A stretch of 63,971 nt of DNA, counting the filler, from Sluysia triapertura (taxonomy: Eukaryota), in the NCBI GenBank assembly GCA_046118255.1. It is 4 parts of 4 records of this genome, joined end to end, with 100 filler letters (N's around TTAATTAATTAA, not from the genome) between each part and the next. Parts side by side here need not be neighbours in the genome. Positions count along the whole stretch, not along the records: positions 12,340 to 40,265 come from JBJNIA010011095.1; 3 more parts are not named here. One strand, given 5' to 3'. Both the position numbers and the translations under genes were made by a program. Shown here piece after piece: positions 12,240 to 62,650 of the stretch. Positions within the stretch are counted from its first letter, which is position 1, and each line of letters starts with the position of its first letter. Under the pieces are notes generated by a model. That model made no database searches. It had not been told where the DNA came from and saw nothing but the letters and a program-made list of their open reading frames with translations.

Positions 12240-12339
12240 NNNNNNNNNNNNNNNNNNNNNNNNNNNNNNNNNNNNNNNNNNNNTTAATTAATTAANNNNN
12301 NNNNNNNNNNNNNNNNNNNNNNNNNNNNNNNNNNNNNNN
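12240..12339. other. Assembly gap with artificial TTAATTAATTAA linker
   Basis: N run, 12-nt six-frame-stop linker, N run; the same construct occurs at 40266-40365 and 53197-53296. Confidence 0.97.
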
Positions 12340-14737: not shown

Positions 14738-15838
14738 TGCTAGTGTTTTTCTTACACTTAAGCAAATTACCTGAAGAGTCGGTTCGCCTAATATATACGT
14801 TTTACACCAAAACTGGAGACGTATTATTAGGATTTACTATTATTTTATGTTAGTGCTTACTTAACACCTTAACTTACAGATACTAAATTAATCTTACAGA
14901 TAGTTAATTAAATTAATTAAGATTTTATGTATATATTACGCAACCCTTTTTATGGTGTTGCTTTTTGTAAAAATAATTAAAATTCCGCAACCCTTGTATG
15001 GTGTTGCTCGAAAATATTTATGATTTTATATTTACGCAACCCTGTTATGGTGTTGCTTATGAAAACTATTCTTTATAAATTTAAAAATTACGCAACCCAG
15101 CTATGGTGTTGCTTTAATAAAGATTTTAGTTTAATAATAAAAAACTTAAAAAACTAAATTATATTATAATACACTTAAAAAACTTAAAAACAATAAAACT
15201 TAAAAATAATTTATAACCAAAAAATTATAATAACAATAAGATTTTATTGAAGTTACTCAATTACAAATTGGTAACTTATGAAGTTTAAGCAAAGATTTCG
15301 CAACCCAGTTATGGTGTTGCATACAAAAATTAAATGAATTTACGTGGATATTATGTTTCCCCTTATGGTGAAACGAAAACTTAAGCAAATAAAAATTACT
15401 TAGGCATGGAAGAAATCATCTTTGCATAAAAGTTGGTCTTCGTTTGAATTGTAAAATCTTCTGAAAAACTAAAATTTTCTCCTTTCTAAAATGTCTTCTT
15501 AAAATTTTCTTTATTACTGAAATTCTATTAAATTAACAAAAAATGTCTACCTTTTTATACTAATTTCTTCAAAATGTCTTCTTATTTAATTTATTTTGAT
15601 TCACTTAAACAATAATTTCTGGATTTTTCTTTTTTAATCATTTATTTTGAAATTTAATTATTTATTTTTAATTTTAACTTAATTTAATTTATTTTAATTT
15701 TTATTTCTAATTCTAAATTTTAATATTTTAATTTTTTAATTTCTTTAAATTTTTTTAATATAATAATAATAATAAAATTAAAGAATGTAATGTTCAATAA
15801 TAAAATCAAGAATAATATACACAATTTACATTCTGACA
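14738..15838. mobile_element. Solo-LTR-like repeat, family B, copy 1, with an internal hairpin array
   Basis: TG...CA termini. Shares CTGAAGAGT.GGT.CGCCTAATATATA and TGGAGACGTATTATTAGGATTT with 46394-47373. Contains GCAACCC-N4-5-ATGGTGTTGC five times plus one variant. Confidence 0.7.
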
Positions 15839-16002: not shown

Positions 16003-16850
16003 TGTTTCTTAATGTAAAGGAAGAATTTAACTTACAGATACTCGAAAATAATATCAAAATGATTGATTTCAAATCGTGTAAATCAGGATATTTTTTCAGC
16101 CGGATCACAAATAATACCAAAATCAAATTATCTTCTTTGTTGGAATATTTCGGAAACAATTAAAAAAACGAAACAAAAGTCATTCTTGAATTCGCAGGAA
16201 CCAAATGATCAAATCGTGTAAGTCAATTTATTTTCTTCACAGGAACAAAATGATTTATCAACAATTCGCTGTCTTTTTGCAATTAATTGAATAGTATATC
16301 AGCTAAAAAAAGTTGTCGAATTAATACTAACTAATATTACTATATGACTATTCTTAAGTCAACATAAGTAATTATCTATTTATTTAGGTAACAAAATATG
16401 GAATTCTCATGGTATTTATTTTAAATTATTTATTTTTTAGATAATAGCATAACAGGATATCTGGTAACTTATTATGTTTAACTGATAATTTTATTTTTTT
16501 AGATTACCAAATGTCAAGCTCTCGGGTTATGTGTTTTATATTTATTTATTATTATAATTTATAATAATAATAATTATTTTTTAGATTCCATATTTTGTGA
16601 TCATCTATATTATGTGATCCTGACAAATAATTAGAAAGATCAGATTCCGTTTTCTACTATTTTATTGTCGAATTATTTTTCAGAGTATTGTTTAGAAATA
16701 ATGTGTTTAAAACTATTTCAATGTCTCTTTATTAAATTATCCATACTAATGTAGTTATATTTTTATTTTAATTCACATTATTTTTAATTTAATATTATTT
16801 TTTTTACTGAAATTGTTTAAATATTATTTAATGATAAAATAAACTGCGAT

Positions 16851-18888
16851 ATGTTAGATATATGTAAATTAACAAAAAATGAAGTTAGTCGTTATGGTCG
16901 TCAAATCATAGTGGGAGATTTTGGTGTTAACAGTAAATGGTTTTATTTCGTTACTAAATATCTCATTTTTTTATTAGCTCAATATAATTTACGAGATGCC
17001 ACTATATTAGTCATTGGTTTTAATGATATTACGAAATGTGCTGTTATTTATTTAGCAGCTGCTGGAATTGGAAAAATTAAATTGTTTTATAATCACGCAG
17101 AAATTTATGAATTGAAGTGCGATATAACAAAATTGAATTCTGCAGTACAAGTTGAATTTATTCAAGAATTGTCTAAAAAGGATAAATTTGATGCTATATT
17201 ATTGAATGAAGACTGTAAAGACATAGCATGTAAAGGTCCTATTTTTCAATCGGAAATAGATGGCTCGGTTTGCCGTTTAAGGTTACTTTTAGAAAGTGAT
17301 AATTTGTCGGATTGTAATGCTAAATATGAGTCTAAATGTGTTGGGTGTTCCGATTTAATGGGTTTGTTTCAAGCTACTGAAGTTATAAAATATATTGGTA
17401 AATTAGGTAAAGTAAAGCAAACATTTACATTTGACATAAATGAACATAAATTTACAAAAAAAATGGATTCTAAAAATCACTTAAAAGAAAAAAAGCTAAA
17501 TTCCGTTTTAATTGTTGGTTGTGGAGGTCTTGGATGTCCAGCCGCACATACAATTGCTAATTCTGGTTGTTTTTCAACAATAGGTTTAGTAGATAATGAT
17601 GTTGTTGAAGAATCTAATTTGCACAGACAAGTTTATCACAACGAAGAACGAATTGGAATGCTAAAAACCGAATCTTTGAAATGGCACATTGGAAAGTAAT
17701 GTATTTAGAATAATTAGTAATTATTTATTTAGAATAAATTCTAATTTAAATGTAGAAACTTTTAATGCTCGATTACGACGTGATAATGCAATAGATATTA
17801 TTAAAAAGTAAGCTTATATTTCTGTCACGATATAAATATTAGGTATGATGTCATATTAGATTGTACTGATAATATTCCCACGAGTTATCTGGTTAGCGAT
17901 TGTTGTGTATTGCTGCAGAAACCTCTTGTTAAGGGAAATGCACTTAAATTAGCTGGTCATTTAGCAGTTTATTGTTACCGAGGTAGTCCTTGTTATCGAT
18001 GTATTATTCCAACACCGCCGGATGTTGTGGGTAATTGTGCTGATAATGGAGTACTTGGATCAGTGCCCGGTGTCATGGGAACTTTGCAGGCAATTGAAGC
18101 TATCAAAATTGTATCCGGTAAAGAATGTATGGCTGGTCAATTCCTTTTATAATGCTTTATCGAGTGATATTCGAGTTTTTAAACTCGGTAATCGGAAATC
18201 CAATTGTTTGGCTTGCGGGAGTAACTTAGATAATCGTATAAATATGAATTTAATGGATTATCGGGAATTTTGTGGCATGCCTGATGATGATAATGCTTGC
18301 AAATCAATTCGATTGTTGGAACCTCATGAACGAATTTCCGTTGAGGTTAGTTGCTTTATTTAATGCTTTATAATTATAATTATTGGTTGAAATGTTTAGA
18401 TAAAAAATTTAAAGTATGTTAAAGAAATGATATTAGGCCGAGTAAAATTTATTGACTTTGAATATTCTCCGTGTGTATCGTTTAAAGCCTTCCTGAAAAG
18501 AATGAATGTTATTGTTATAAACATGTTTGGTGCAGTTTAGAATTACGTTTCTTTGTGTGGTCACATAAAATTTTATTGTTTAACTGTACATGAAAAGGAC
18601 CTTTTCATCGTATCATATTTGATAAGGTGTTATGTGTAGTGTATGTCTCTTCCACATGATGTTTGTCCAAAGTCTCGTTATGGATGACTTGTATCTAAAC
18701 AAGAAATGAGCCTCTTATTGTCATTTTAAATTCTTATTGTTTTCCGATTTTGAAACATTTCACTGATATATTTATTTTATTTTTAATTCAGGAATATCAG
18801 CAAGTAGTCATCAGTGGTCAGATACATGTCTTGTTAGATGTGCGTCCAAAAGAACAGCGCGATATTTGCCGAATTAAAAATTGTTTAG
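16851..18888 (+). CDS. MOCS3: MOCS3/UBA4-like adenylyltransferase-sulfurtransferase with an extra degenerate N-terminal ThiF domain. Exons 16851-16932, 16978-17695, 17733-17807, 17843-18345, 18792-18888; 3' end not found; frameshift at ~18148
   Basis: Motifs [83 protein letters not shown] and rhodanese start [12 protein letters not shown] introns restore the frame at each junction. Confidence 0.9.
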
Positions 18889-31639: not shown

Positions 31640-33526
31640 AAACGATTAATATATAATCGATATTCGCAATTTAATGAAAAGTTACGAAGAACATATTAAA
31701 ATATCTTTCAAAAATTTTACGTATATTTTACGACAATTGAAATCGCTTAATTAAAATTAACTAACGATTATTTAAAGATTTTGAATAAATTCTCGGCAAC
31801 AATAGAACACGAATATAAACGATTAGTAATTATGAATTAGAAACGGAAAAAGGAAACAGAGCATTGAATGTGAAAACATCTAGAACCTAATAAACTGCTA
31901 AATAAACTGCTAACTTTAGAATCTTAGTAAAACCTTTAAACATAAAATAAGATTAAGTCTAAAAAATAAGAAAAATTACGTTTTTGTGAATAACGTTTGA
32001 ATGAGGAAGGCTATGTAGAATTCGAAACTGTATATGGATTTGTTTTAAAAAGACCTTTTGATGACCGATTCTTGCAAGGAAAGCCTTAATATTGAGCAAA
32101 GTCAAATTTTTATTAATTTTTAATTATGCAATGTTGAATTTTTTATACTTAGAATGATGAAAACATAATGAATTAAATATGATATGATGTTTTTAGAGTG
32201 GCTTGTTTGAGAATATGAAATTTAAATATTTTTAATTAGAAAATTGGGTGTGAAAAATCTAAAATCAATTAAATTCTTAAAAGTGAAATTAAATTCATTA
32301 TTTTTATGTATGTTAACAATATTGTGGTTGTTATTTTAATGTGAAAAGTGATTTAAATAAAAACAGATTAAGTATAATACGTTTTGTAATTAATAATAAT
32401 AGCAAATTAATATCGCTTAATCTATTTAACTAAACCTCAATAATTAATGACTAAATTCAATCTAAAATTACCACAATTTTCTTTATTTCGATGATGTTAT
32501 TTGCTCAACAGAAAGATTAAAATTAAATAAAAAACAACAATTCAATAATTTAATGATTACAAAAAAATCAATTACTGTTATAAGTATTTACTAAACAACA
32601 ATAAAATCACTAAAACTACAGGATTAACAATAACCTTTATAATAGTATCAATGACATGACAGTCTGAATGAAGAAACCAGGAGTGATGCAACAAATACTA
32701 AAAATATCGATATCGAGAAAGTGTAAAATAGTAATATTGCTTAAATATTTTCAGATCATCTTAACCTAATTTGGCAGGGATCCTCCCAAAAATCAAATTT
32801 ATCAATTTCTTATAAAAAGATGAAAATAACAACAATATTATTAAAATATTTCAAAGTAACTTTATTTTATTATATTATTGAATTATTGTTATTAATTTAA
32901 ATTGGGTTGAATAAACACCATTGCTAAAATAACAAAATTTGTGATAATGTATGCTTGATCTAGTGAGTATTGAAATTATTGAAATTCTATTTAAGTAAAT
33001 TGAACTTATATTGATTTACTGTTAATAATAAAATCAAAGACGCAACAATTACATAGATAAAAAAGAAGTTAAATTTGGAACAATAAATCCAGAAAAGATT
33101 CAACAATCACAACAACGCTTGTACACAATAAAATTATAATACAGGATTGAAATAAAAGGATTCTCGACCTTGTTAACTCAGTAGTTCTAATACACTTTGG
33201 AAAATAATTATTTCCATAATTTTCGGCATAAATCTATAGAGAAAACACTAATCTCCTATATATACTAACACAGACATTAGGTTAATGTTTTATAAGTTTA
33301 CATCGTTTTAAATAGGCTTAAAATACTGCTGTATTTTGTATATAATTGATCAGCAGTATTTTAAATAGCTGGATAAAATCTGCATCAAATAAGCCTCAAT
33401 ATTAATAATAATTATTAGGAATAAACCTTTTAAATTCTAAAACCAAACAAATTGGTTTCTTGGTTTGTGCTATAATCCTTTTATAATTATGATTGAAATA
33501 TTTATTAATTTGTTGATTAATTTGAG

Positions 33527-34085
33527 TTGACATTACATTTATTTAAAACGCCATCAATGAAAAGAGCAGATGGTGTAGGAAATAAAACCAGCTTGGGATC
33601 TATTGAACAAGTTTTACATGATGAGATCATACATCTCGGAATACGAAAGATGAAAATTACTCGAGGATTTATTCATGACAAGATAATTGCCTTAGGAAAA
33701 GAATTAAATATTGAGCTAAAGGCTACTGGAAACTGGGAAACCAGATTCATGAAAAGAAACGGTCTCAGTCTTAGATGTACCAGCAATTTGGCCACTTTAA
33801 CAGACACTGTGATTTGTTTGTACGTGATGTGTGATGTAGGTTTCATAAAAGATTTGAATTAGCGCATTGTGCAATTAAATATTTAAAAAACTTTGATGAT
33901 GGACGAAGGAGCAGTTATGTGGGATTCTATAACAAATACTGTAGACTCAATTAGCGAACATCACGTCATTATGAAATCAACTGGATTTAGTTCAATTCGA
34001 GTTACAGCAATAATTTCTGTTTGGGCAGATGGTAAAAAGGCAATTCAATTGGTAATACATAAAGGCAAGCATGAAGGCATCACTT
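33527..34085 (+). mobile_element. pogo-family transposase fragment (CENP-B-type HTH plus start of DDE), truncated
   Basis: EQVLHDEI...ITRGFI...KATGNWETRFMKRNGLSLR, then MDEGAVMWD...VIMKSTG...RVTAIISVWADGKK...VIHKGK. Confidence 0.85.
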
Positions 34086-34157
34086 CTGAACAAAATGAGA
34101 CGAAGATCCAAACTTTACTAAACTTATATCATATTGATTTGATTCAAACTACGAAGA

Positions 34158-36235
34158 TTGAAAGGGAAAAAGAATCAAAAAACGGAAGATCCAACAAATA
34201 TAATGACACAATTATTCGGCAATAACGGTATCATATTAAATAATGCAATACCAAGGATAGGCAATTCGACAAATAATATGCTGTTTATCATAATACTATT
34301 AGCAATGTTCGGCATAAATAGAACTAATGCAATAAAGGCATTTGACTGTAGCCAGTAACAAATAGGCAGAAAAATTTCATTAATGGACACAGAAGATTGT
34401 CTTGAATAAAGGCCAAATAAAATACAGGTAAAAGATACTAAAATAATGAATGTTTACCAAGAAGGTAATCTAATAACGACTATAATAAAGGAGTGTTAAC
34501 GATCAGTTGCAATCTGGTATTGCGGTCACCGTAGCTATTCATCAATAATAGAATTATCTAATGTACTTAAACCATTTAAGATACTACCTAAACAATGCAG
34601 AAATGCGTTTGAGACCGGCTGTATAAGTCTAACAAAGGGAGAAAAATTGAAAATATGAAATAATGAAAAGATAATTTATAGTATAAGAACCGCCGGAAAT
34701 GTACTAAGAGATGGGGCATGTGAACAAGGAACGATAGAATATGAAGGATAAATCTATCACAATGTTGTCGTACAGGAGACATACGTAGTTAGTTTGAAAT
34801 CATTTAACAAGAGTTTTGATATAGAAAAAAGTACGATGATGTCGCGATCATATTGCAGAAGTGATGAAACCAATTGCGACACTGGAGAATCAATACTAAT
34901 TTTCGAATTTCAATGTCCACTAATATTTCTTAAACAAATAAAATTTAATGTAATATCAGGATTTTTGTATCAAGATAAAGACGAATACCCATTAGAAGAA
35001 ATAAATAAAAATTCTGACCATATACAAAGAAAAAGATTAGATGAAGTCGAAACATCGGCAATACCAATGGCCAGTAGGGAAGAAGATGGTTTAATTTTTA
35101 TTTCAAAGGAACAATAATCCGCTGTGGAAAAGAAATAACAACCAAGGAATTTATCTCTCAGAGAAAATAATTCAAAAAGCTAAGAAAGGCGTTGATACTA
35201 AAAATATAAAATTAAATGCCTATTTTAACAACAAAATCGATTTCTATTACCATTTAGGTTTGATTTCGCTAGAAAAAATTTATCAAATTATGGTTATTCG
35301 GGATTGTCAATTAAACAAAGAAATTTTACGCACAAAATTGGCAATAGCTACTAAAAATCCAGACTTAGTCGCACCATTAGAAGAAGGAGTTTTCGGTCGA
35401 CTAGTGGGAGAAGTATTATACACGTACAGATGTAAAAAGATGGAAGTACAGTTAAAGTCAACTACCGAATGCATAAATGAATTACCTATATAATACGGTG
35501 AAACAGAAACACACCTCGAACCAGTAACCAGAGTAATCTTTCAAAATAATAAAGTCAAACCAAAATTAATGCACTCCTCTAATGTCATGGCAGCGGAATA
35601 TAGAATCGATGATAATTTATGGATATCCTTGCCTCACAGAAGCCAGGTAAAACTCTAGAAATAATAGGATTAACTGAATTAAAGGGAAAACTAAAATTTT
35701 TAGCTACAAAAAACATACCAAATTCTGGAATTTATACGAATGACGATATGCAAGCAGCCTGGCGGAAGGTACTATTCCCAATAAAAAGGTTAAAAATATA
35801 ACTGAAATTGTAGATAAAGCAACGATTTACTATTGGGACCCGATCATTTTAAAAGAGCTGCACAAGATACACTAAAACAGATATGGGGAAAAATTTTAAT
35901 ATTAGGACAAGCATTTTCTGGATTAATAGGAATATATAATAATTAAGGTAATAGCATTGATAATTTCTCAAGCTTTTTCAGTAGTCGGAATTTATAAAAT
36001 CTCAGAATTTACGTGGAAATTAATAATTGGACGTTTTCCATTCCTTGCAGAATACCTCTTGCACCACCATGAAAATGCTCAAATAAATGTATTAAGAAAA
36101 GAAAGACAATATACAGAAGAAGGACAACAATTACAAACATTGCAAAACAGTGATAATGAGGAAATAGTAGAAAATCAAAAATGCATTGAAATTCAGGAAA
36201 ACATAGAAACAACTAAAGAGAATAAGAAAAGATGA
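34158..36235 (+). pseudogene. Decayed envelope glycoprotein, class III fusion type (chuvirus G / herpes gB-like), part of the Ty3/Gypsy element
   Basis: Read through stops: signal peptide MLFIIILLAMFGINRTNA, AFDC, ISLMDTEDC, WYCGHRSYSS, QCRNAFETG, GACEQG, NVVVQ, YFNNKIDFYY, RDCQLNKEIL, GEVLYTYRC..MEV...ECINELPI, LEPVTRVI, GIYTNDD and C-terminal hydrophobic segments. Family assigned by motif recognition, not a database search. Confidence 0.85.
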
Positions 36236-39200
36236 CTATATCCTATTACTCCAACATCATCACCCAATGTAATCTATATGATATGCTCTAATAACAATTA
36301 TAATGGATCAAAGAGACCAAGAATAAATGCTAGAAAAAGGGTAGAATAAACAGCACTAAGTGATACAGGAACAGTAGCCTCCTTAATCAACGAAAACGTC
36401 TTAAATAAAGATGAATTAAAAAATTTAACTAATCATACCTCTCGTCTTTCAGGAGTTACAGGCGATGCAATTAATATAACTGGGGTAATGCGAATTAGGA
36501 CAAAATAGATTAGAAATTAAATTAAGAGTTATGAAAAATGTCCAGAAGAAATGATAGTGAGAATAGACATTTTGTCTCAGTTAAAAAGAGTAACATTAGA
36601 TTTCGACCAAGTAAAATTAATGGATAGTGGATCAAAAAGAATTATTGATGATGATGACGTATACGTAGATGAACCAATCTGGTTAGTAAAAAGAAGTGAA
36701 TATATTGCAGGTCAAGACAAACAGTCTATTAACCGGAAATATCATGTTTATTACATCAGAGATTAATCAAGAGAAGTTAGATATAGGAATAGCTAGTGCA
36801 GTGTAAAATAATTGCGAAGAGAAAATACCCGTTAGGATTATAAACTACACAAATGACAATAAATGGCTTTATATAGGGACAAAATTAGGAAAAATAGTTA
36901 AATATACAATACCAGCACATATTAACTTAATTTCGGAAAATAAAAGTAAAAAACGATAAAAAGTAACATAAAATTACAACATGAGATACAAGACGAAGAC
37001 TATGGCGAAATATAAATTATTAATAAGAATTTAACTAGGAATCAGACAGATCAGTTATATAGTATCAAGAGAAATAGCGAGAAATAAGTGCGACATTGGA
37101 GATTCTGTAATAATAAAACACTAGATAGCGCTAATAATAGATAAAGTAATCCGAAAAAGCCATACAGAGTACCGATATGTAATCAAAAGGAGATGCAAGA
37201 ACAAATAGATACTATGAAAAAATCCGGAGTGATAAGACCAAGCATCTCACCTTTCTCATCTCCAGTTTTATTAGTTAAGAAAAAAGATAGTACAATGAGA
37301 TTTTGTATAGATTTTAGAGAATTAAACAAGGTACCAAGAAAAGACATATTTTCTTTACCAAGAATAGATGAAATGTTGGACGAATTAGGAAACTCCACAA
37401 ACTTTACAACTGTTGATCTACAAAGCGGTTATTGGCAAATCGAAATCGCTGAAAAAGATAAACATAAAACCGCACCTGCAACTTTCCAAAGGTGCATGAA
37501 TTTCGTACTATCAGGATGTAAAATGTTATGGTATACAAAGATTTCGAACCACTTATAAAAGATATTGACAATATTCTAAATAGACTGGAAATAGCTAAGT
37601 TGAAAATTAAACCAACAAAATGCGTTTGGGCTGAGAAAAAAGTCGAGTTTTTAGGACACATAATGTCAAAAGATGGAATAAAGCCCAATTCGAGAAACAT
37701 AGAAAAATTAGTAAAATTTCCACAACCCGATAATGTAAAAAAGATTCAATGTTTTTTAGGATTAGCTAATTACTAGAGAAGATTTGTTAAAAATTTTGCT
37801 AAGATAGCACAACCACTCAGGAAGTTAACACGAAAAAATGTCGAATTTAAGTGGACTAATGAACAAACTAAAGCGTTTAAGGAATTGAAAGAACGACTAA
37901 CTACGGCACCAATACTAATTTTTCCAGATATTAATAAACCATTTATATTGACTACTGGTGTTATTGATGTAATCTTAGGACAGAAAGACAAAAACAATTT
38001 AGAAGCAATAATTGCGTACGCTAGTCGACGACTAAATAAGGCCGAGATGAATTATTCGACCACTAAAAGAGAATGTTTGGCTATTGTACACGCATACAAA
38101 TTATTTAGGCATTATTTATTAGGACAGATAGTTTATTTATATACTGATATCAAGCGGCTGACCTATTTGTATAATCACAAGGAGGAGATCAGCAGATTAA
38201 ACAGATGGTTTAATAAATTAGCAGAGTATAATAATGGTGCAGATTGTATGTCACGCTTAACTAATGTAGATGATAAAGGAAATATTAATTATATACAAAT
38301 AATGTCAATATCAGAGAAGATAAAGATACCGCTTATATTATAGATTCATTAGCGAAGGAAACCTTAATTGAAAGTCAAGCAATCACTGATGGAATGCTTA
38401 GATTTAGAAATTCAAAAGATGAATGGAAAACAGTTGTCCCTAAATCATTAGTAACACAAATATTAATACAATTTCATGATGGACATCTGTCTAAGAGAAA
38501 AACACTATCCAGAATAAAAGACAAGTATTATTGGGAAGATATGGAAGATGATATTACAAATTGTTGTAAAAATTGTTCAATATACTACAGGAGAAAAAAT
38601 ACGGGAACAGGGTCAAATGTACCATTAAAACCTATGCCTGTACCAATGCCACCAATGGAATTCACATAAATGGACATAATGGGACCACTATCGGAAACCA
38701 TTAATGGAAATAAATATATTATTGTGTTTGCTGATTATCTAACAAAGGCAGAAACTGTAGCACAAATACTTGTGAAGAAAATAATTTATAGATATGGTAC
38801 ACCAAGGAAATTATTGACGGATCAAGGTAAAAATTTTACAAGCGATATAATTAAATCAGTAGCAAAAATATTTAACATTCTTAGAATCTAAATATTACCT
38901 TATCATCCACATACAGATTGATTAGTTGAACAATTCAATCGGACACGAATAAATATGTTACAATCATATATTAATGATAGACAATCCTACTGGCACTTAT
39001 ATTGCACCATGTTTATTCTCTTATAGAAGTTTGGTACATCCAGCTACGAATTTCACACCATTTTATTTGATGTATGGACGACATTCTAATATGCCTGTAG
39101 ACTTAGAATGGATACCACCAATGACATAATACGTGGAAACACCAGAGTACGTGACAGTAATGCATGGAAGCGTGCTGGCTTACAAATAAAGTTTTCACAA

Positions 39201-39430
39201 GAAACATATAAAGATACATATGATAAAAAAGCTAAAGAGCACAATTTTCAAATCGGTAACAAAGTACTTATTGAATATCATTTAGCTAAACCTGGACAAT
39301 CACCAAAATTACATAAGCCATTTAAGGGACCATATAAAGTGATAAAAATTACTGATACTAATTTATTTGTTGAAAATGGATTCAAAAACATTCATAATAC
39401 ATGCAAAAGTATAAATTGCACCAAATAATG
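36236..39430 (+). mobile_element. Decayed Ty3/Gypsy pol: protease, dUTPase-like spacer, RT, RNase H, integrase
   Basis: Protease ALSDTG (36362). RT IRPSISPFSSPVLLVKKKD..MRFCIDFRELN, DLQSGYWQI, PATFQR, FLGH, FLGLANY. RNase H AYASRRLNKAEMNYSTTKRECLAIV. Integrase HD-GH...C, MDIMGPL, LTDQGKNF, GPY. RT-RH-IN order is the Gypsy order. Many stops, frameshifts and deletions. Confidence 0.95.
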
Positions 39431-39543
39431 AATATAAGTTAAAAAATAGGACATTTACCAAATCACTATTAAAAGCTAAACCGAAAATTAAAGATCGTGA
39501 TAAACCACCATCAATACAATCATTAATTGATAAACAAGTAATA

Positions 39544-39870
39544 TTGATGTTTAATGTATCAACTGGAATACGAACGCATATTTTTCAAAATGTGTATTTT
39601 AATGGTAGATGGATCCGAGCTGTTATAGATACCAGGGCTACCACGTCTGTAATACATTATAATTTTTTAACTACATGGGAACTTGTATTTATAGATCCAC
39701 CACAAACAATAATGTTCATCGAGCACCAATAAATATGAATGGAATAATACATGCACATTTAGATATATTAGACAAACGAGTAGATGAGTATATTTAGGTT
39801 TGAGAAGAATTTCCTTTCGATTTAATAATTGGTTTAGATATACTTGACAAATTAGATGACATAGTTATAC
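39544..39870 (+). pseudogene. Second retropepsin-like aspartic protease downstream of integrase
   Basis: VYFNGRWIRAVIDTRATTSVI (DTG to DTR by one base, 39628-39636); after a frameshift, FPFDLIIGLDIL at 39819. Confidence 0.75.
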
Positions 39871-40025
39871 ATAGTAAATACGGTCTTATGAATTTTCACA
39901 TGGTGCACAATTACTAATTCCACATGTTGTTGTTCCATTTCTTCATAATGACATCACTCTGATATATCCAAACACCTGATCTTGAATCTAATAATCCAGC
40001 ATCGCCACCTGGCCGATTATCTGAT

Positions 40026-40265
40026 TTGTTATGGGGAAAGCCATTCATTGACTCATCAGTGTCATCAGTAACAAGTGAATTTTCAGAGTCATCATCGGGA
40101 ATTGGTTCTGTTAACACAGTAATGTTCACTTTTTCTAGTAAAAATAATTATAAGGCTAAGAAATCATTCTGGACATCATTATTAATATTAATGATTGTAT
40201 TTTTAACTTTGATAGGTACAGTTAAGTCAATAGATATTGAGGAAGAATATAGAAAGTTATATTCA
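40026..40265 (+). CDS. Ser-rich linker then signal-peptide-like segment, truncated by the assembly gap
   Basis: KAKKSFWTSLLILMIVFLTLIGTVKS-IDIEEEY has a basic n-region, hydrophobic h-region and small-residue cleavage site. It is in the same frame as the C-terminal half of the second protease. Confidence 0.5.
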
Positions 40266-40365
40266 NNNNNNNNNNNNNNNNNNNNNNNNNNNNNNNNNNN
40301 NNNNNNNNNTTAATTAATTAANNNNNNNNNNNNNNNNNNNNNNNNNNNNNNNNNNNNNNNNNNNN

Positions 40366-40440
40366 TTGTTTCTTTGTTAGGTCGCCAGAAATATTCGAGT
40401 CACAAATTGGGTCGCGAATAAAAATTAGTGGGAATCCCTG
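40366..40440. mobile_element. hAT (Charlie-like) element terminus
   Basis: GGTCGC repeats followed by AAAAATTAGTGGGAATCCCTG, resembling the reverse complement of a CAGGGxTTCCCAAACT-type TIR. Confidence 0.5.
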
Positions 40441-41190
40441 AACTATAGTATAGTAAAATTGGAATAACTATTTGAATATTCCATTGTGTGCAGCACCTTG
40501 TTTTATGGTTTTTGGTTTACTTTAATTTAATTCTATGTCATACAATATCAAAATACTAATAACGTTTTTATTAACCTCAAAACTCTTTATTTTTGTGACT
40601 TGTCATAAATCCTGGCTAAAAAAGTGATCATTTTTTACGGTCTCTTCGAAAATAATTGTTTTAAAAGTATTATTATTACCATTATTATGATTATGATTAA
40701 GATTATTATGAATATTATTATTATCATAGCACATTTTATTATTTTTCTCCTTTTATCCAAATTTGCTACTGTTCATAAAATTACATTGTAAGAATATTAC
40801 TAAATAAATTATATTATTTTATACAATTATAAATTAGATAATTTATAAAAAAATACCATTTGTAAATATTATTTAAACAATTATTTAATAATTTAAACAT
40901 TAATATAAATGCATAGATAAACATGTTAATGAAAGTAATTCTGTACTTATTTTGCGCCATTTCAATTGGAAGACTCGACAACTTCAGTCGAATTTATTAA
41001 GGAAGTGACTATTTTGATTATCTATTAAATTACAAATTGTAAAGTTTACTTTAATTAATTAATTTTTATAATCTTTATTAAATATTAAGTGCATAATGTT
41101 CATTAAGTGAAGTGTGTCTGCGAGTAATAATGTTTAATATTTTCTGTACTACTTAGTCTTAAATTCTCAAATAGATCAATTAAATTTCAG

Positions 41191-41572
41191 TATTAGAAGC
41201 CGTAACTGTGGCTGCCGATCATTTGGTGAACAAAACTCGTGGTCGTCGAAGTATCGGTCGTAAAAGGATCATAATAATGTCATATCTGGATGGCGAAATT
41301 GATTGGTCTAATTTGGATGATATCACAGCTGCACTGAAGGCTGAAGAATTTGAAGTAGATGTCATTAGTCGTCGTGAATTACCAGAAGATGACGACGTTA
41401 ATGAGAAGCAGGACCCCAAATCGTGTGATGCGGGAGCTGGGGACGAAGGCGGCACCAACAAAAACCACAGAAACATATTTGATGGGTATAAACTGTCGCC
41501 GGTTGTATTGTTAAATGAAACAATGCTTCAAAGGTTGATTACAGATACTGATGGAGCTTCGTATTCATTCAC
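41191..41572 (+). CDS. XRCC5: Single exon of Ku80 (vWA domain)
   Basis: tttcag acceptor and gttagt donor. LEAVTVAADHLVNKTRGRRSIGRKRIIIMSYLDGE...LDDITAALKAE...DGASYSF aligns by eye with Ku80 [33 protein letters not shown]...LDIIIHSLKK...IYSF. Confidence 0.75.
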
Positions 41573-41587
41573 GTTAGTTTAATAATG

Positions 41588-43626
41588 CACCAACACCTCA
41601 CTTTGCGTTGGGGTTACGTTCCAGAAAAATACGACGCAAAGTGAATTAAGATTTTCTATAGCAAACCATGTAAAGATCGAAGATAGGTTCCAGGTTTACG
41701 AAAATACTACTTTTAAAAAAAGAAAACTGAACAAAGTGAACACTTAAAAAACAAAAATAATATAAAATTTTATTACATACATACAAAAAAAAACAAAAAA
41801 ACGTATTCAATTAAAACAAAATAAACTATTCAATTAATTATGAAAAACAAACTTACAATTAATAACTGTCTGATGAGTCCATAGTGGCTGTTGTCGTAAG
41901 TCGGCTTTCTTTCACAAAAAATTGATCCAATGTTTGCTGAACAGCTTTTTTTTCAACGTAAAATAAATTTCCTCGTAGTAATTGATATTCACAGCTACCT
42001 CCTGCACACTTTAAAACTCCTTCCACTGTCAGGATCGTTTTTTAAAAATCTCCATAGCTTCGTCAATCAAACACATCGCTTTGGAAATTTGTTTGGAGGT
42101 TAAATTTTGTTCTTCCGATATTTCTATTAGCAATATCATCTTCATTAGCAAACCGCAATTCCATGGTATGCTTATCTTGTCCATCAGTCTCACTTAAAAG
42201 AAGTTTAAATGTCCGTCGAAGGTAATAACTTTTAAAAGTCGATATTACTTCCTGATCCATCGGCTGAATAACTGGTATCGTATTAGGCGGCAAAAATACA
42301 AATTTCACGTTTTCTGGCAACTCATCAACATAAACTGGTGGCCAGGAACATTGTCTACTAGGACCAATGCCTTGAAGTTTAAGTTTCCCTTGTTGCAATA
42401 AGTTTTAATTTCTGGAATAGCACAAGTTGAAACCCAGTTTTGAAATAATGATGTTGTCATCCATGCTTTTTTGTTTGCTCGCCAGTTGACAGATTCTTTG
42501 AACCTTTCATAGCTCTTGGATTTTCTGATTGATAAATGAGAAATAGTTTATATTTGAAATCACCATTTACATTACCACCAAGAAGAAGAGTCAGTCTATC
42601 CTTGCTAGCTTTAAATCCTGGCGCAGATTTTTCTGTTTTAGATATGAAAGTTCTGTTAGGTAGACGTTTCCAAAATAACCCAGTCTCGTCAACACTAAAG
42701 ACGATTCGGATCATAGCCACCTTCATGAATTAATGCTTTTAACTCTGTCGGGTAGCGTTCTGCAGCAGTTATATTAGCGCTAGCTGCTTCGCCTTTAAGA
42801 GCAATGGTGTGCAGATTTGCTCAAACCTTGAATCTCTCAAACCAGCCCTGACTAGCTTCAAATGTTTCATTATTGTCTGCATTACTGCCACTAGCATTAT
42901 CGTTGGATGCTCCTTACTTTTTATGTCATCAAATAAGCTTTTTTCTTTCGTCTGAATTACCATTTTTCTTAATGGTATTCTCTGCGCAACTTGATTTTCA
43001 ATCCAAATAGAAAGCAAGGACTCCATTTTCATCACCAAAGAACTCCTTGTACGGATCATCGTTTTAGCATCTATTGATGTTGCAGATTTTGCAGCCTCTC
43101 TTATTTTATCCCCATCTCGATCTCTAATAGTTCTCACAGTTGTTGCAGCCAGACCAACAACCTTTGCTATCTCCGCAGCCTTTTCTCCCTTATCAAATCG
43201 TCGCAGAATATCTAATTTATCTAATTTCCACTCATTTGGCTAAAAAAATTACAAATGTATGTATGCCAATAAATAAATTGGAAAAATATTTACCTCTTCT
43301 GTAACCAGAAACAACCCGTAAACATTTATAAAAAGTTATTATTCTCTTTTAAAAAAAACACAACACACTACATAATTGAAACTGAAAACAACTGAAACAA
43401 AGTGAAAATAAAATTGCGTTGATTTTCAGTTAGAAATGGAATCCCCGAGTTCTGATGGCATGGCACAATTAGAAACAAAAGTAGTGCCATCTTTTAGAAA
43501 AAAGAAAATTTCAAAAATAATTAAAACAATGCATCCTCGAAAATCTAACAACGTACAGCAAAAATTAGTATTAATTAAGCAGCGACGCAACTTCGAAAAA
43601 ATGCAAAACGAAACGAGGTATTGGTG
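41588..43626 (-). mobile_element. Tigger-like (pogo family) DNA transposon, near full length, decayed
   Basis: TIRs CACCAACACCTC and reverse complement CACCAATACCTC, with TA on the right. HTH (KLDILRRFDKGEK, MESLLSIWIE), DETGLFWKRLPNRTFISK...PGFKASKDRLTLLLGGN, and VFLPPNT..IQPMDQEVISTFKSYYLRRTF. Confidence 0.92.
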
Positions 43627-46393: not shown

Positions 46394-47373
46394 TGTGAGG
46401 GTTTTTTCTTAACCTACTTGCAAAATATCTGAAGAGTTGGTCCGCCTAATATATAGGATTTATGCCACTATTGGAGACGTATTATTAGGATTTTTATAAT
46501 TTATACTTAAGAAAACTTTTGCTTATGTCTTACTCTAACAATTAATTATTGCGTTATAATTATAGATTTTATATTTACACAACTCTCTTTAAGGTGTTAC
46601 TTTAAAAACAAATTTGATTTAAATTTATAAATTACACAACCCTTTTGGTAAGGTATTGTTTGAAAACAATGATTTATTTTACGTAAAATAAAATAATAAT
46701 CCTACAAAAATCTGTTAAAAAATCGTACACAGAAATTTAATATTATAATAATGATATACAATTTAATAATTCAACCTTAGTTGATTACATATAAGTTTAA
46801 TTTAAAGATTACCCAATCCTCTTTAAGGTGTTTGTACGAAAATATTAAAATAATTTAAGTAGATTTTAGTTTTCTTGTATACAGTGAATACGAAAAACTT
46901 ATAAAGAAAAAATTACTTAGGATGCATGGATCTTCTAAAAATTTGATGGTACCTTCGTCGAGTTCCTAAATTTTATTTTTATTCTAATCCTTCTAATTAT
47001 ATTATATTGTTGTTCTGATTCCTACAAAATTTTAAAGAATTTATATAGTAATTTACTTTACGCCATTTTAATTTAAATTTTTCTTAAATAAATATAAAAA
47101 TTATCAAAAATAATTACCTAAATTAGTTATTTAAACAAAATATTTTCTTTCTAATAAATTAAACAAAAGGTTTTTTGGTATTTAATTAATTTTATTTTTA
47201 ATTTAAATTTTAAAGTAATAATTTCTTTAATTTTAATATTTGTTTTTTAAAATTATTAATTTCTTTTTAATTTTCTTATTTTTACTAATTTATTTAATAA
47301 TATTTGTATAATAATAATAATATTTACAAGATAAATTTTACAGTAGATAAAATGTAAAATTTACAATCCAACA
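46394..47373. mobile_element. Solo-LTR-like repeat, family B, copy 2
   Basis: TGT...ACA termini with ATTT on both sides (possible 4-bp TSD). Colinear with 14738-15838. Degenerate hairpins at ~46579, ~46636 and ~46811. Confidence 0.7.
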
Positions 47374-53196: not shown

Positions 53197-54351
53197 NNNN
53201 NNNNNNNNNNNNNNNNNNNNNNNNNNNNNNNNNNNNNNNNTTAATTAATTAANNNNNNNNNNNNNNNNNNNNNNNNNNNNNNNNNNNNNNNNNNNNCATT
53301 TATATATTATTAATTCAAACTAATTGAAAATAAAATTTTACAAAACCTTTGGAAAAGGCGAATTAATTGTATCTTTTTCAACTTGGCAATAAGACACAAA
53401 AAGAATATGGAAAAATTAATAAAATTAAAGAAATAATAAAAACGGAATTTTGTTCTTTATTTCAAGACAAAGTTTAATTATTTAATATATCTAGAAAGTG
53501 CGATAACAAAATGGTGATTCCGATAAAAGACGGATCGATAGGATTTCTGCTAGAAAAGGTAAGTTACGCGTAGAGGAGCCTTAAATTTTAATATGGAACT
53601 AATCAATTAATGCTTATTAATAAAATAGGAAAACTAAAATGATTATACAATGTTTAATAATAAAATAATAGCTAAGAATAAAATAATATTCTTAATAACA
53701 AAATATCATTTTAATGAGATTTTAAGACCACCATTACAATATTCGTATAAATAATAAGATTTTGGGTCAGATTTTATCCCATCTTAAAAAATGGTTTAAA
53801 AAACTTATCAAAAGTAAGCTTCAGTATGCATAGAAAACATTATACTCATTATATTTTATATTTTATATAGATATCAAATGTAATGATTATTCTGATTTAT
53901 CATCAACTGACAACTATGACGAATAATATGAAAAATTCATTCCAGAACACTTTCACTATTGGACTTATTGTAATTCATTCACTCAGAAATTGTTTCCATT
54001 TGAGATAAATAAACAAGTTGATATATTTTGAGTACTGTTTCGATCAGAAATTGATGGAAATTATTACCAAACAAACAAATATTTATCACGAACTAAATAA
54101 ATCAAAAAGGCAGGACAGAAGTTCGTGGAAGTGTTTTACTTGGTGAAATGTATACGTTTTTGCAACATTTACTTTTCATGAAAAATGCGATAAATGTATT
54201 TATTGGTCAAGAGATCCATTTCAGTCAAAACCATACAATGGAAAAGACAAACCACACGCTCAGGAAGATAAAAGATGATATTGTTGGGGTAAAAAGGCCT
54301 AAAAGTGCCATTTGGTAAAATTGTATATATTAAAAATGAAATTGTTAGAAG

Positions 54352-61541: not shown

Positions 61542-62650
61542 TGTCGGGCATATTTCCGTTTGCAAAGGTTCTGTTTTAAAAGAAACCTATTCGGTAAAAT
61601 TGTCAACGTCTAGAGGAGAGTACGGCTAATTAGAGATTATTTATGTCACTAGCTGACGACGGTCTAATTAGACTTATGAGTAACGTAAAGAAATTAACTG
61701 TTAAAAATAGTCACAATTATAGCGAAATTAACTGGTAGCAATGAAAAAATGATGTGTATTATGAATGTAGAATAGTTAAAGTTAATGATAGAAAAGCGAA
61801 ATAATTGAAGTTAATAACCTTATTTATACGTTGAGACAGCCTTTTTACGGTCTGTCTAATGTTCAAATAATTTAAATGTTAAAACCGCCTTTTTAAGGTC
61901 TTATTAAATTATCGTGGATTTTAAATAAAACAACTAAGTTGACAACAGAATAATTTTATTCAAAAAATTAGATCTATACAACTGTAATAGACTTTACAAA
62001 AATAATTTTACTCAAAAAGTTGTAATAGACTTTAGAAGACAAAAAATATAATAATGATAATATTTTAAATCTTAAGATAGTTATCTTAGATTATAAAATC
62101 AAATTTTAGTTAAAGTTTAAGCCAGCCTTTTTACGGTCTGACAAGAAGTTGAAGATTTTAATTCGGATTCTAGTCCTATTCAAATTACAATTAGGGCGTG
62201 CAAAAAACCTATATAAAATTAAATTACTTTTTCATGGACACTTGATTAGATTATAATATAGCAGGATAGAATATAAAACCAAATTCAACTCCACAACTGA
62301 ACACTTTATCTTACACATACATAACAATAATCCAAAATTATCAAGGATACCTATAACGCAAGCTGCTGTTGAGTCACAATTACAATTAATCAACACAAGT
62401 AGGTAACGCAAATTTTTGAGTTTATATATTGAGTTTAATATATCAGACAAAAATTAAACAATAATTGGAGACAGACGGTATTCAAAAATATTGGAAATTT
62501 TGTAAGTTTAATTTTTATTAAAGTGGTTTTATTCCTAAGAATAAAATCTTAAAATATTACTTAAATTCCTTTTTAAATATATTTTAAACTCCCATGTAAT
62601 GAGAGACCAAATCGATTTTTAAAATCAATAATTTGTTAAAAACATTAAAG
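61542..62650. repeat. LTR-like repeat, family D, with bulged-hairpin repeats; boundaries approximate
   Basis: CAGCCTTTTTACGGTCTG at 61837 and 62123, a variant at ~61885, TGTAATAGACTTTA twice, and a related segment near 20170. Confidence 0.4.

Follow-up and report, generated by a model that had tools for sequence, protein, structure and literature searches.

A retropepsin-type domain after integrase in a repeated gypsy-like element with a gB-type env before pol, from Sluysia triapertura

Elements with env before pol and the Sluysia locus

Placement of env before pol is already known in LTR elements (PMC13524379, PMC6431247). GAG-ENV-POL elements with a gB-type env have been reported from nematodes, bryozoans and flatworms; in the available part of that paper, pol carries one protease, the main text uses the word 'protease' once, the chromodomain is the only domain named after integrase, and alternative ORF arrangements fell outside the search (PMC13524379). 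Burro, the giant gypsy elements of planarians, carry env in frame upstream of the protease, and the excerpts of that source also describe LTR elements as capturing ORFs downstream of pol (PMC6431247). In bdelloid rotifers, the accessible sections list env, a GDSL esterase, a DEDDy exonuclease and small transmembrane (TM) proteins as ORF3 cargo and describe ORF3s as highly varied and, typically, as spliced units of their own (PMC5408684). A standard pol with one protease is also what the accessible text of a fourth paper presents (PMC12440569).

Here we describe an element in a 63,971-nt stretch of S. triapertura DNA (assembly GCA_046118255.1; hereafter the window). As far as the published descriptions were available, it shares with the GAG-ENV-POL errantiviruses a Ty3/gypsy pol, a gB-type env before protease, reverse transcriptase, RNase H and integrase (PR-RT-RH-IN), and many copies, and it differs from them in having a second retropepsin-type domain (PR2) and a second signal-like stretch (signal 2) after integrase, and in the absence of gag from the window copy. 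GAG-ENV-POL errantiviruses with an HSV/gB-type env have reportedly also been described by Sacco et al. 2022. The published elements are set apart here by their partly available text description, and some may carry PR2 unremarked (PMC13524379). Burro resembles the window element in its env before PR, its thousands of copies and its many-domain polyprotein, but its env is described as a relative of gypsy Env and of mononegavirus fusion proteins, its cargo is of the apoptosis/ubiquitin type, and the excerpts covered mention no second protease (PMC6431247). The bdelloid ORF3 elements share extra coding cargo past integrase, including transmembrane proteins, whereas the sections covered mention no retropepsin cargo and describe no env before pol (PMC5408684). 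Titles and abstracts of open-licence PMC and bioRxiv articles yielded no second or post-integrase protease in an LTR element, and the integrase-PR2-signal tail is a layout variant that we did not find in the sources searched.

Read on the + strand with an X set at each stop, the element has the order env (gB type), PR1, RT, RH and IN, followed by PR2 (Table 1), and stops and frame changes interrupt all of its genes in the window copy. Pfam, a protease profile and hydropathy support the order env-PR-RT-RH-IN-PR-X that an earlier, sequence-only reading had proposed, X being the downstream protein. The fusogen match falls into two pieces (34275-34877, E 4.3e-25; 35179-35640, E 5.1e-26), and Pfam, hydropathy and tblastn place env immediately 5' of pol. 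PR1 scored 29.1 bits on the protease profile (best shuffle, 11.5) and had no match in Pfam. In tblastn, the RT/RH region matched a long polyprotein, P0005, at 43-49%. Integrase gave Integrase_H2C2 (E 1e-15), rve (E 6e-4) and a weak MLVIN_C match. The pol order, the H2C2 finger, the rve core and the GPY motif agree with the criteria for Ty3/gypsy (Metaviridae) elements. All RT/RH relatives (18/18) were gypsy-type pol proteins. In a tree built without a named panel, the window row fell in no starred group. By these sequence features, the element behaves as a gypsy element with a gB-type env before pol. A weak match to residues 440-582 of P0005 (E 6e-4) lies between PR1 and RT (36735-37205); by position and look, it may be a decayed dUTPase-like domain.

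Repeat depth starts only near 34150, so the window copy is without its 5' part. Pfam found no gag in + frames from 33001, and we saw no LTR pair or target-site duplication in the window, where the 5' end is missing and the 3' end falls in the gap. The remnant adjoining the 5' end had no Pfam match and from its motifs is presumably pogo/Tigger-like. The spacer starting at 40266 interrupts the element, and the sequences on its two sides are not necessarily close in the genome. A six-frame Pfam search of 40366-43502 found no retroelement domains beyond the spacer, and we rejected the idea that the element resumes there; the 3' side holds only Tigger/pogo-type DDE remnants. A decayed Tigger/pogo-type DNA transposon occupies 42063-43239 on the minus strand (CENP-B_N, DDE_1). 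The animal DNA of the window is AT-rich (GC mostly 16-37%) and includes genes of the host that encode a ThiF-family enzyme, an ion channel and a rhodopsin-type receptor. The ThiF-family gene (16821-18363), which we take to be MOCS3/Uba4-like, apparently has two tandem ThiF-like N-terminal parts, and Pfam matched the second only. Repeats of ~56 nt form small families with a common core and are partly clustered (14925-15342, 46566-46621 and 61820-62161).

Table 1. Features of the element and its borders in the window.
Feature	Position	Strand	Evidence
pogo/Tigger-like (presumed) DNA transposon remnant adjoining the element 5' end	33521..34100	+	ORFs; low depth, near-identical contigs
Signal-peptide-like stretch 1, env start	34272..34330	+	hydropathy scan
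env ectodomain, gB-like class III fusogen (PF24664), with stops and frame breaks	34275..35640	+	Pfam
env transmembrane anchor	35933..36000	+	hydropathy scan
PR1, canonical position, D-T-G at 36362, stops inside	36338..36622	+	protease profile
Reverse transcriptase and RNase H, broken	36992..38259	+	Pfam RVT_1, RT_RNaseH, RT_RNaseH_2; tblastn
Integrase: H2C2 zinc finger, core, GPY motif at 39327, broken	38331..39413	+	Pfam, tblastn
Basic IN-PR2 linker, in frame with PR2 N-half	39415..39591	+	stop-free frame 39415-39729; diverged contig spans it
PR2, retropepsin-type domain, degenerate catalytic motif	39592..39857	+	protease profile, Pfam sub-threshold
Ser/Pro-rich linker	39963..40140	+	15 Ser and 5 Pro in 60 residues
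Signal-peptide-like/signal-anchor stretch 2	40152..40229	+	basic n-region, core 40167-40223, small residues 40221, 40227; judged by hand
X, downstream protein, first 12 residues, acidic start, ends at gap	40230..40265	+	reading frame
Artificial 100-nt spacer, 44 N, 12-nt filler, 44 N	40266..40365		identical spacers at 12240-12339 and 53197-53296

Identity of the domain after integrase

The sequence-only reading had pointed to a second retropepsin past the GPY motif, carrying both protease motifs, and both are present: the Asp of AVIDTRA lies at 39628 and DLIIGLDIL at 39819-39845. PR2 starts ~265 nt past the GPY motif, leaving too little room for an LTR and gag. Its two motifs do not share a frame: a frame break falls at ~39700-39720, and near 39795-39803 there are two stops. 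In Pfam, the N-terminal half matched gag-asp_proteas under the cut-off (E=0.012-0.024) and the C-terminal half was unmatched. Because this match was sub-threshold, we built our own profile of 111 positions from 14 protease domains found in 13 of 18 long retrotransposon polyproteins. With X at the breaks, PR2 scored 23.8 bits over positions 5-90 of the 111, a score reached by 0 of 2000 shuffles (a score was reported for 1721; best, 7.1), and this comparison with retropepsins, which had been suggested as a check, thus came out in favor of the assignment. Both halves fit the profile in register. A six-frame scan of the whole window returned three domains only, namely PR1 and the N- and C-terminal halves of PR2, the latter two colinear. 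PR2 scored 24.8 bits on a profile rebuilt without P0005 and 26.1 bits on one rebuilt without another polyprotein, P0020. A chance motif was rejected on the profile score relative to shuffles and on the whole-window scan.

Retropepsins carry a C-terminal motif of the form hydrophobic-hydrophobic-Gly-x-Asp, which is intact in PR2 (IIGLD, 39825-39839). In place of the catalytic Asp-Thr/Ser-Gly, the window copy reads D-T-R-A. By sequence, PR2 is a retropepsin-derived domain that would be dead in this copy. A dUTPase, known as the 'pseudoprotease' of retroviruses, was also considered and rejected, as none of three queries (P0001, P0002 and P0004) had a dUTPase family among its matches up to E 10.

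PR2 was said to be clearly different from the first protease, and this holds: the two gave no BLASTP alignment and are 22-25% identical (25% over 80 columns). A tandem DNA-level duplication of PR1 was rejected for want of a self-match. In the protease tree, 1 of 16 inner branches was starred, and PR2 may stem from either duplication or capture. PR1 was the row nearest to PR2, in one weak, unsupported group (67/83), with a branch length of 2.86 for PR2 versus 1.41 for PR1. Relatives of PR2 or X numbered 0 of 489 and 0 of 145 candidates in weak searches, 0 among 1.84 billion representatives and 0 of 157 metagenome stretches, and there was no match to a PDB sequence.

The tail, its genomic copies and related polyproteins

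In the window copy, integrase closes with two stops in a frame that differs from that of the PR2 N-terminal half, and the integrase tail is visibly scrambled where the frame shifts before PR2. Two further stops (39915 and 39960) interrupt the stretch from PR2 to signal 2, where hidden frame breaks are possible. The Ser/Pro linker and signal-like stretch that had been described before the gap are both present, but the single frame claimed for them from PR2 onwards crosses these stops. A stop-free frame of 101 codons (39963-40265) holds the linker, a basic patch, the hydrophobic core and the 12 residues of X. Two stop-free frames of at least 100 codons within 39430-40265 occurred in 0 of 2000 dinucleotide shuffles, and one such frame in 35. 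The core (40167-40223) reached a best 15-residue hydropathy of 2.92, equalled in 2 of 502 shuffled frames. Only three stop-free stretches exceeded a hydropathy of 2.0 in the three + frames of 34000-40265, namely the env anchor and signals 1 and 2. In signal 2, the hydrophobic stretch is preceded by basic and followed by acidic residues, a pattern that is also compatible with an uncleaved anchor. A second secreted or membrane cassette, as had been proposed, is plausible from this charge and hydropathy and from the post-integrase cassette of P0005 described below; no sequence feature marks it as a second env. The processing protease that had been proposed to go with such a cassette is tentative, given the single protease of P0005 and the degenerate catalytic motif of PR2 in the window copy.

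To assess repetition in the genome, we mapped contigs of one public run (X1) at 80% likeness. In total 12,703 contigs mapped (516 at ≥99%, 1,723 at 95-99%, 4,911 at 90-95% and 5,553 under 90%), 10,464 of them below 95% likeness. Summed depth, which is no copy number, was 1.1e4-1.9e5 in all 24 bins of 34220-40075, with 4.9e4 at the integrase-PR2 junction, 7.5e4 in PR2 and 3.3e4 in the PR2 tail; it was 68-405 in four flank bins and 4.0e3 in the last bin, which is partly N. Among the 40 of 1,924 rows listed, contigs with another letter numbered 50 at 39544, 37 at 39783 and 22 at 40041, and the PR2-region counts were inside the range for env, RT and IN. One contig (record 8; 428 nt, 59 other letters, 23 gaps) covers 39285-39705, from the GPY motif through the PR2 active-site region. 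As a clearly different copy spanning the junction, it indicates that the junction is common to at least one diverged copy, which is what the sequence-only reading had expected of a genuine arrangement. That reading had also allowed for a nested, unrelated element with its own RT, and no RT lies between PR2 and the gap.

Among 8 of 13,036 pieces listed, one bridges the integrase-PR2 junction, and two contigs (39793-39972 and 39897-39964) join the end of PR2 to the linker. Contigs listed at 39372-39417 number 2-9, and an equal sag occurs within pol at 37042-37065. Contigs are short, and none singly links env to X. Flank contigs differ from the window by 0-1 positions. The window may therefore derive from this very run, which then vouches for other genome copies and not for an independent assembly. 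On this sequence evidence, PR2 appears to belong to the family unit and to be no quirk of the window copy, while the linker and signal 2 may be confined to a subfamily, given the few junction contigs and the depth of the last bin.

An RT-RH search of long polyproteins gave 18 matches among 503 candidates, and the RT/RH alignment query gave 3 viral loci. A protease after integrase was found in 0 of the 18 long relatives and 0 of the 3 viral loci, and PF24664 was listed in none of the 18. No relative was confirmed when env, RH, P0005 and integrase served as queries against contigs of viral or metagenome origin. P0005, the best RT/RH match (49%), resembles the window element in that a signal, ectodomain and TM segment precede PR and a second such cassette follows integrase, all in one ORF. 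It differs in having a single protease, and its cassettes are FN3-like (a weak lead), mutually related and not of the gB type. Its ectodomains are 27% identical over 74 residues (E 2.5e-5), and the likeness of the second to FN3 membrane proteins is no more than a lead. The P0005 ORF contains no gag.

P0020 and two cluster mates (P0023 and P0024) are unbroken PR-RT-RH-insert-PR-IN polyproteins, and like the window element they hold two retropepsin domains in a single gypsy polyprotein. In contrast to the window element, their second protease lies between the insert and integrase with its motifs intact, and they are without env or TM segments. The insert and second protease span residues about 865-1184, and the insert appears OTU-like. 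In another relative, P0011, residues 1620-2250 comprise a signal, ectodomain and TM segment in frame after integrase (a pol-env type fusion) with no Pfam env label. Double membrane tethering and protease doubling thus each exist intact elsewhere, and by sequence the window element combines both.

Interpretation and significance of the arrangement

We favor, at a probability of roughly 0.55, the reading that the copy in the window is old and truncated at its 5' end, and that it belongs to a highly repeated Ty3/gypsy family in which a gB-type env precedes pol and whose unit includes the post-integrase PR2 and the start of a membrane-targeted X. Unbroken copies would then read through in one frame, with PR2 active on a target of its own and X a membrane-targeted product. 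If the three hydrophobic stretches belong to one chain, env would be lumenal, PR1-RT-RH-IN-PR2 cytosolic and X lumenal. Signal 1 would place env in the ER lumen. The chain would be brought back by the env anchor, so that PR1-RT-RH-IN-PR2 lies in the cytosol, and signal 2 would direct X into the lumen, leaving pol tethered to the membrane at both ends and in need of being cut free on both sides. PR1 would release the enzymes on the N-terminal side, and a PR2 homodimer would cut integrase from its C-terminal extension. Since retropepsins are active in dimeric form, the partner of PR2 would be another PR2 or, less likely, PR1. P0005 copes with two membrane cassettes on one protease, and by this analogy PR2 may open a gene of its own, or may be dead or redundant. 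A fuller version is more tentative: an enveloped gypsy lineage with a doubly tethered polyprotein, a gB-type fusogen, a rear surface protein, and two active, divergent retropepsins that share processing or heterodimerize. The same joint and equally tentative reading would make the rear protein receptor-binding or immune-modulating.

It is rather improbable that PR2 is instead fixed but without catalytic activity, a passenger or scaffold that arose by an old duplication or capture, spread with a master copy and takes no part in processing. The degenerate catalytic motif, the long PR2 branch and the single protease of P0005 would suit such a domain. Both halves nevertheless keep the profile register, and PR2, in contrast to the variable linkers, is covered as deeply as the enzymes. 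Decay affects the entire copy to the same degree, which makes one changed residue hardly informative.

A similarly small chance attaches to a separate downstream gene, with its own start or splicing, in which PR2, linker and signal encode either a protease anchored in the membrane or an accessory protein led by the protease, comparable to ORF3 cargo in other LTR elements. The two stops closing integrase and the different frame of PR2 would fit such a gene, as would the compatibility of signal 2 with an uncleaved anchor and, in the sections covered, the separate splicing and variety of bdelloid ORF3s (PMC5408684). However, the frame change sits in the scrambled integrase tail, and a post-integrase signal is in frame with pol in both P0005 and P0011.

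We consider it unlikely that everything from PR2 onwards was acquired from another retroelement, such as the PR-env part of a gag-PR-env-pol type, that recombined ancestrally to give a chimeric subfamily. The identity of only 22-25% between PR1 and PR2, the sag in depth at the junction and past 40000, and the downstream ORF capture described in the excerpts on Burro (PMC6431247) all agree with it; yet a diverged copy has the junction too, PR2 is as deeply covered as the core, an equal sag in depth occurs inside pol, and LTR, gag and RT are absent around PR2. As an origin story, such recombination is compatible with the family-unit reading. Least credible is that PR1 and PR2 form the lobes of an intramolecular heterodimer, a pepsin-like tethered protease able to process at low concentration, since ~1,100 residues of RT-RH-IN separate them and their tree group is unsupported, even though retropepsins work as dimers, two copies per chain occur here and in P0020, and PR1 is the nearest row to PR2 in their one weak group.

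The implications are limited by the dead state of the window copy and by the loss of X in the gap. The standard for LTR retroelements and retroviruses is one protease before RT; if the family-unit reading is true, this family extends that layout with a post-integrase protease and two membrane-targeted proteins, and bears on how invertebrate retroelements gained and processed their envelope proteins. Herpesvirus gB-like fusogens depend on partner glycoproteins, and X is a candidate partner for the gB-like env. Natural polyproteins with two proteases would offer a system for the origin of single-chain aspartic proteases from homodimeric ones. Should the doubly tethered reading hold, protease doubling and double membrane cassettes, taken together with P0005 and P0020, would be recurring and unnoticed modules of LTR retroelements.
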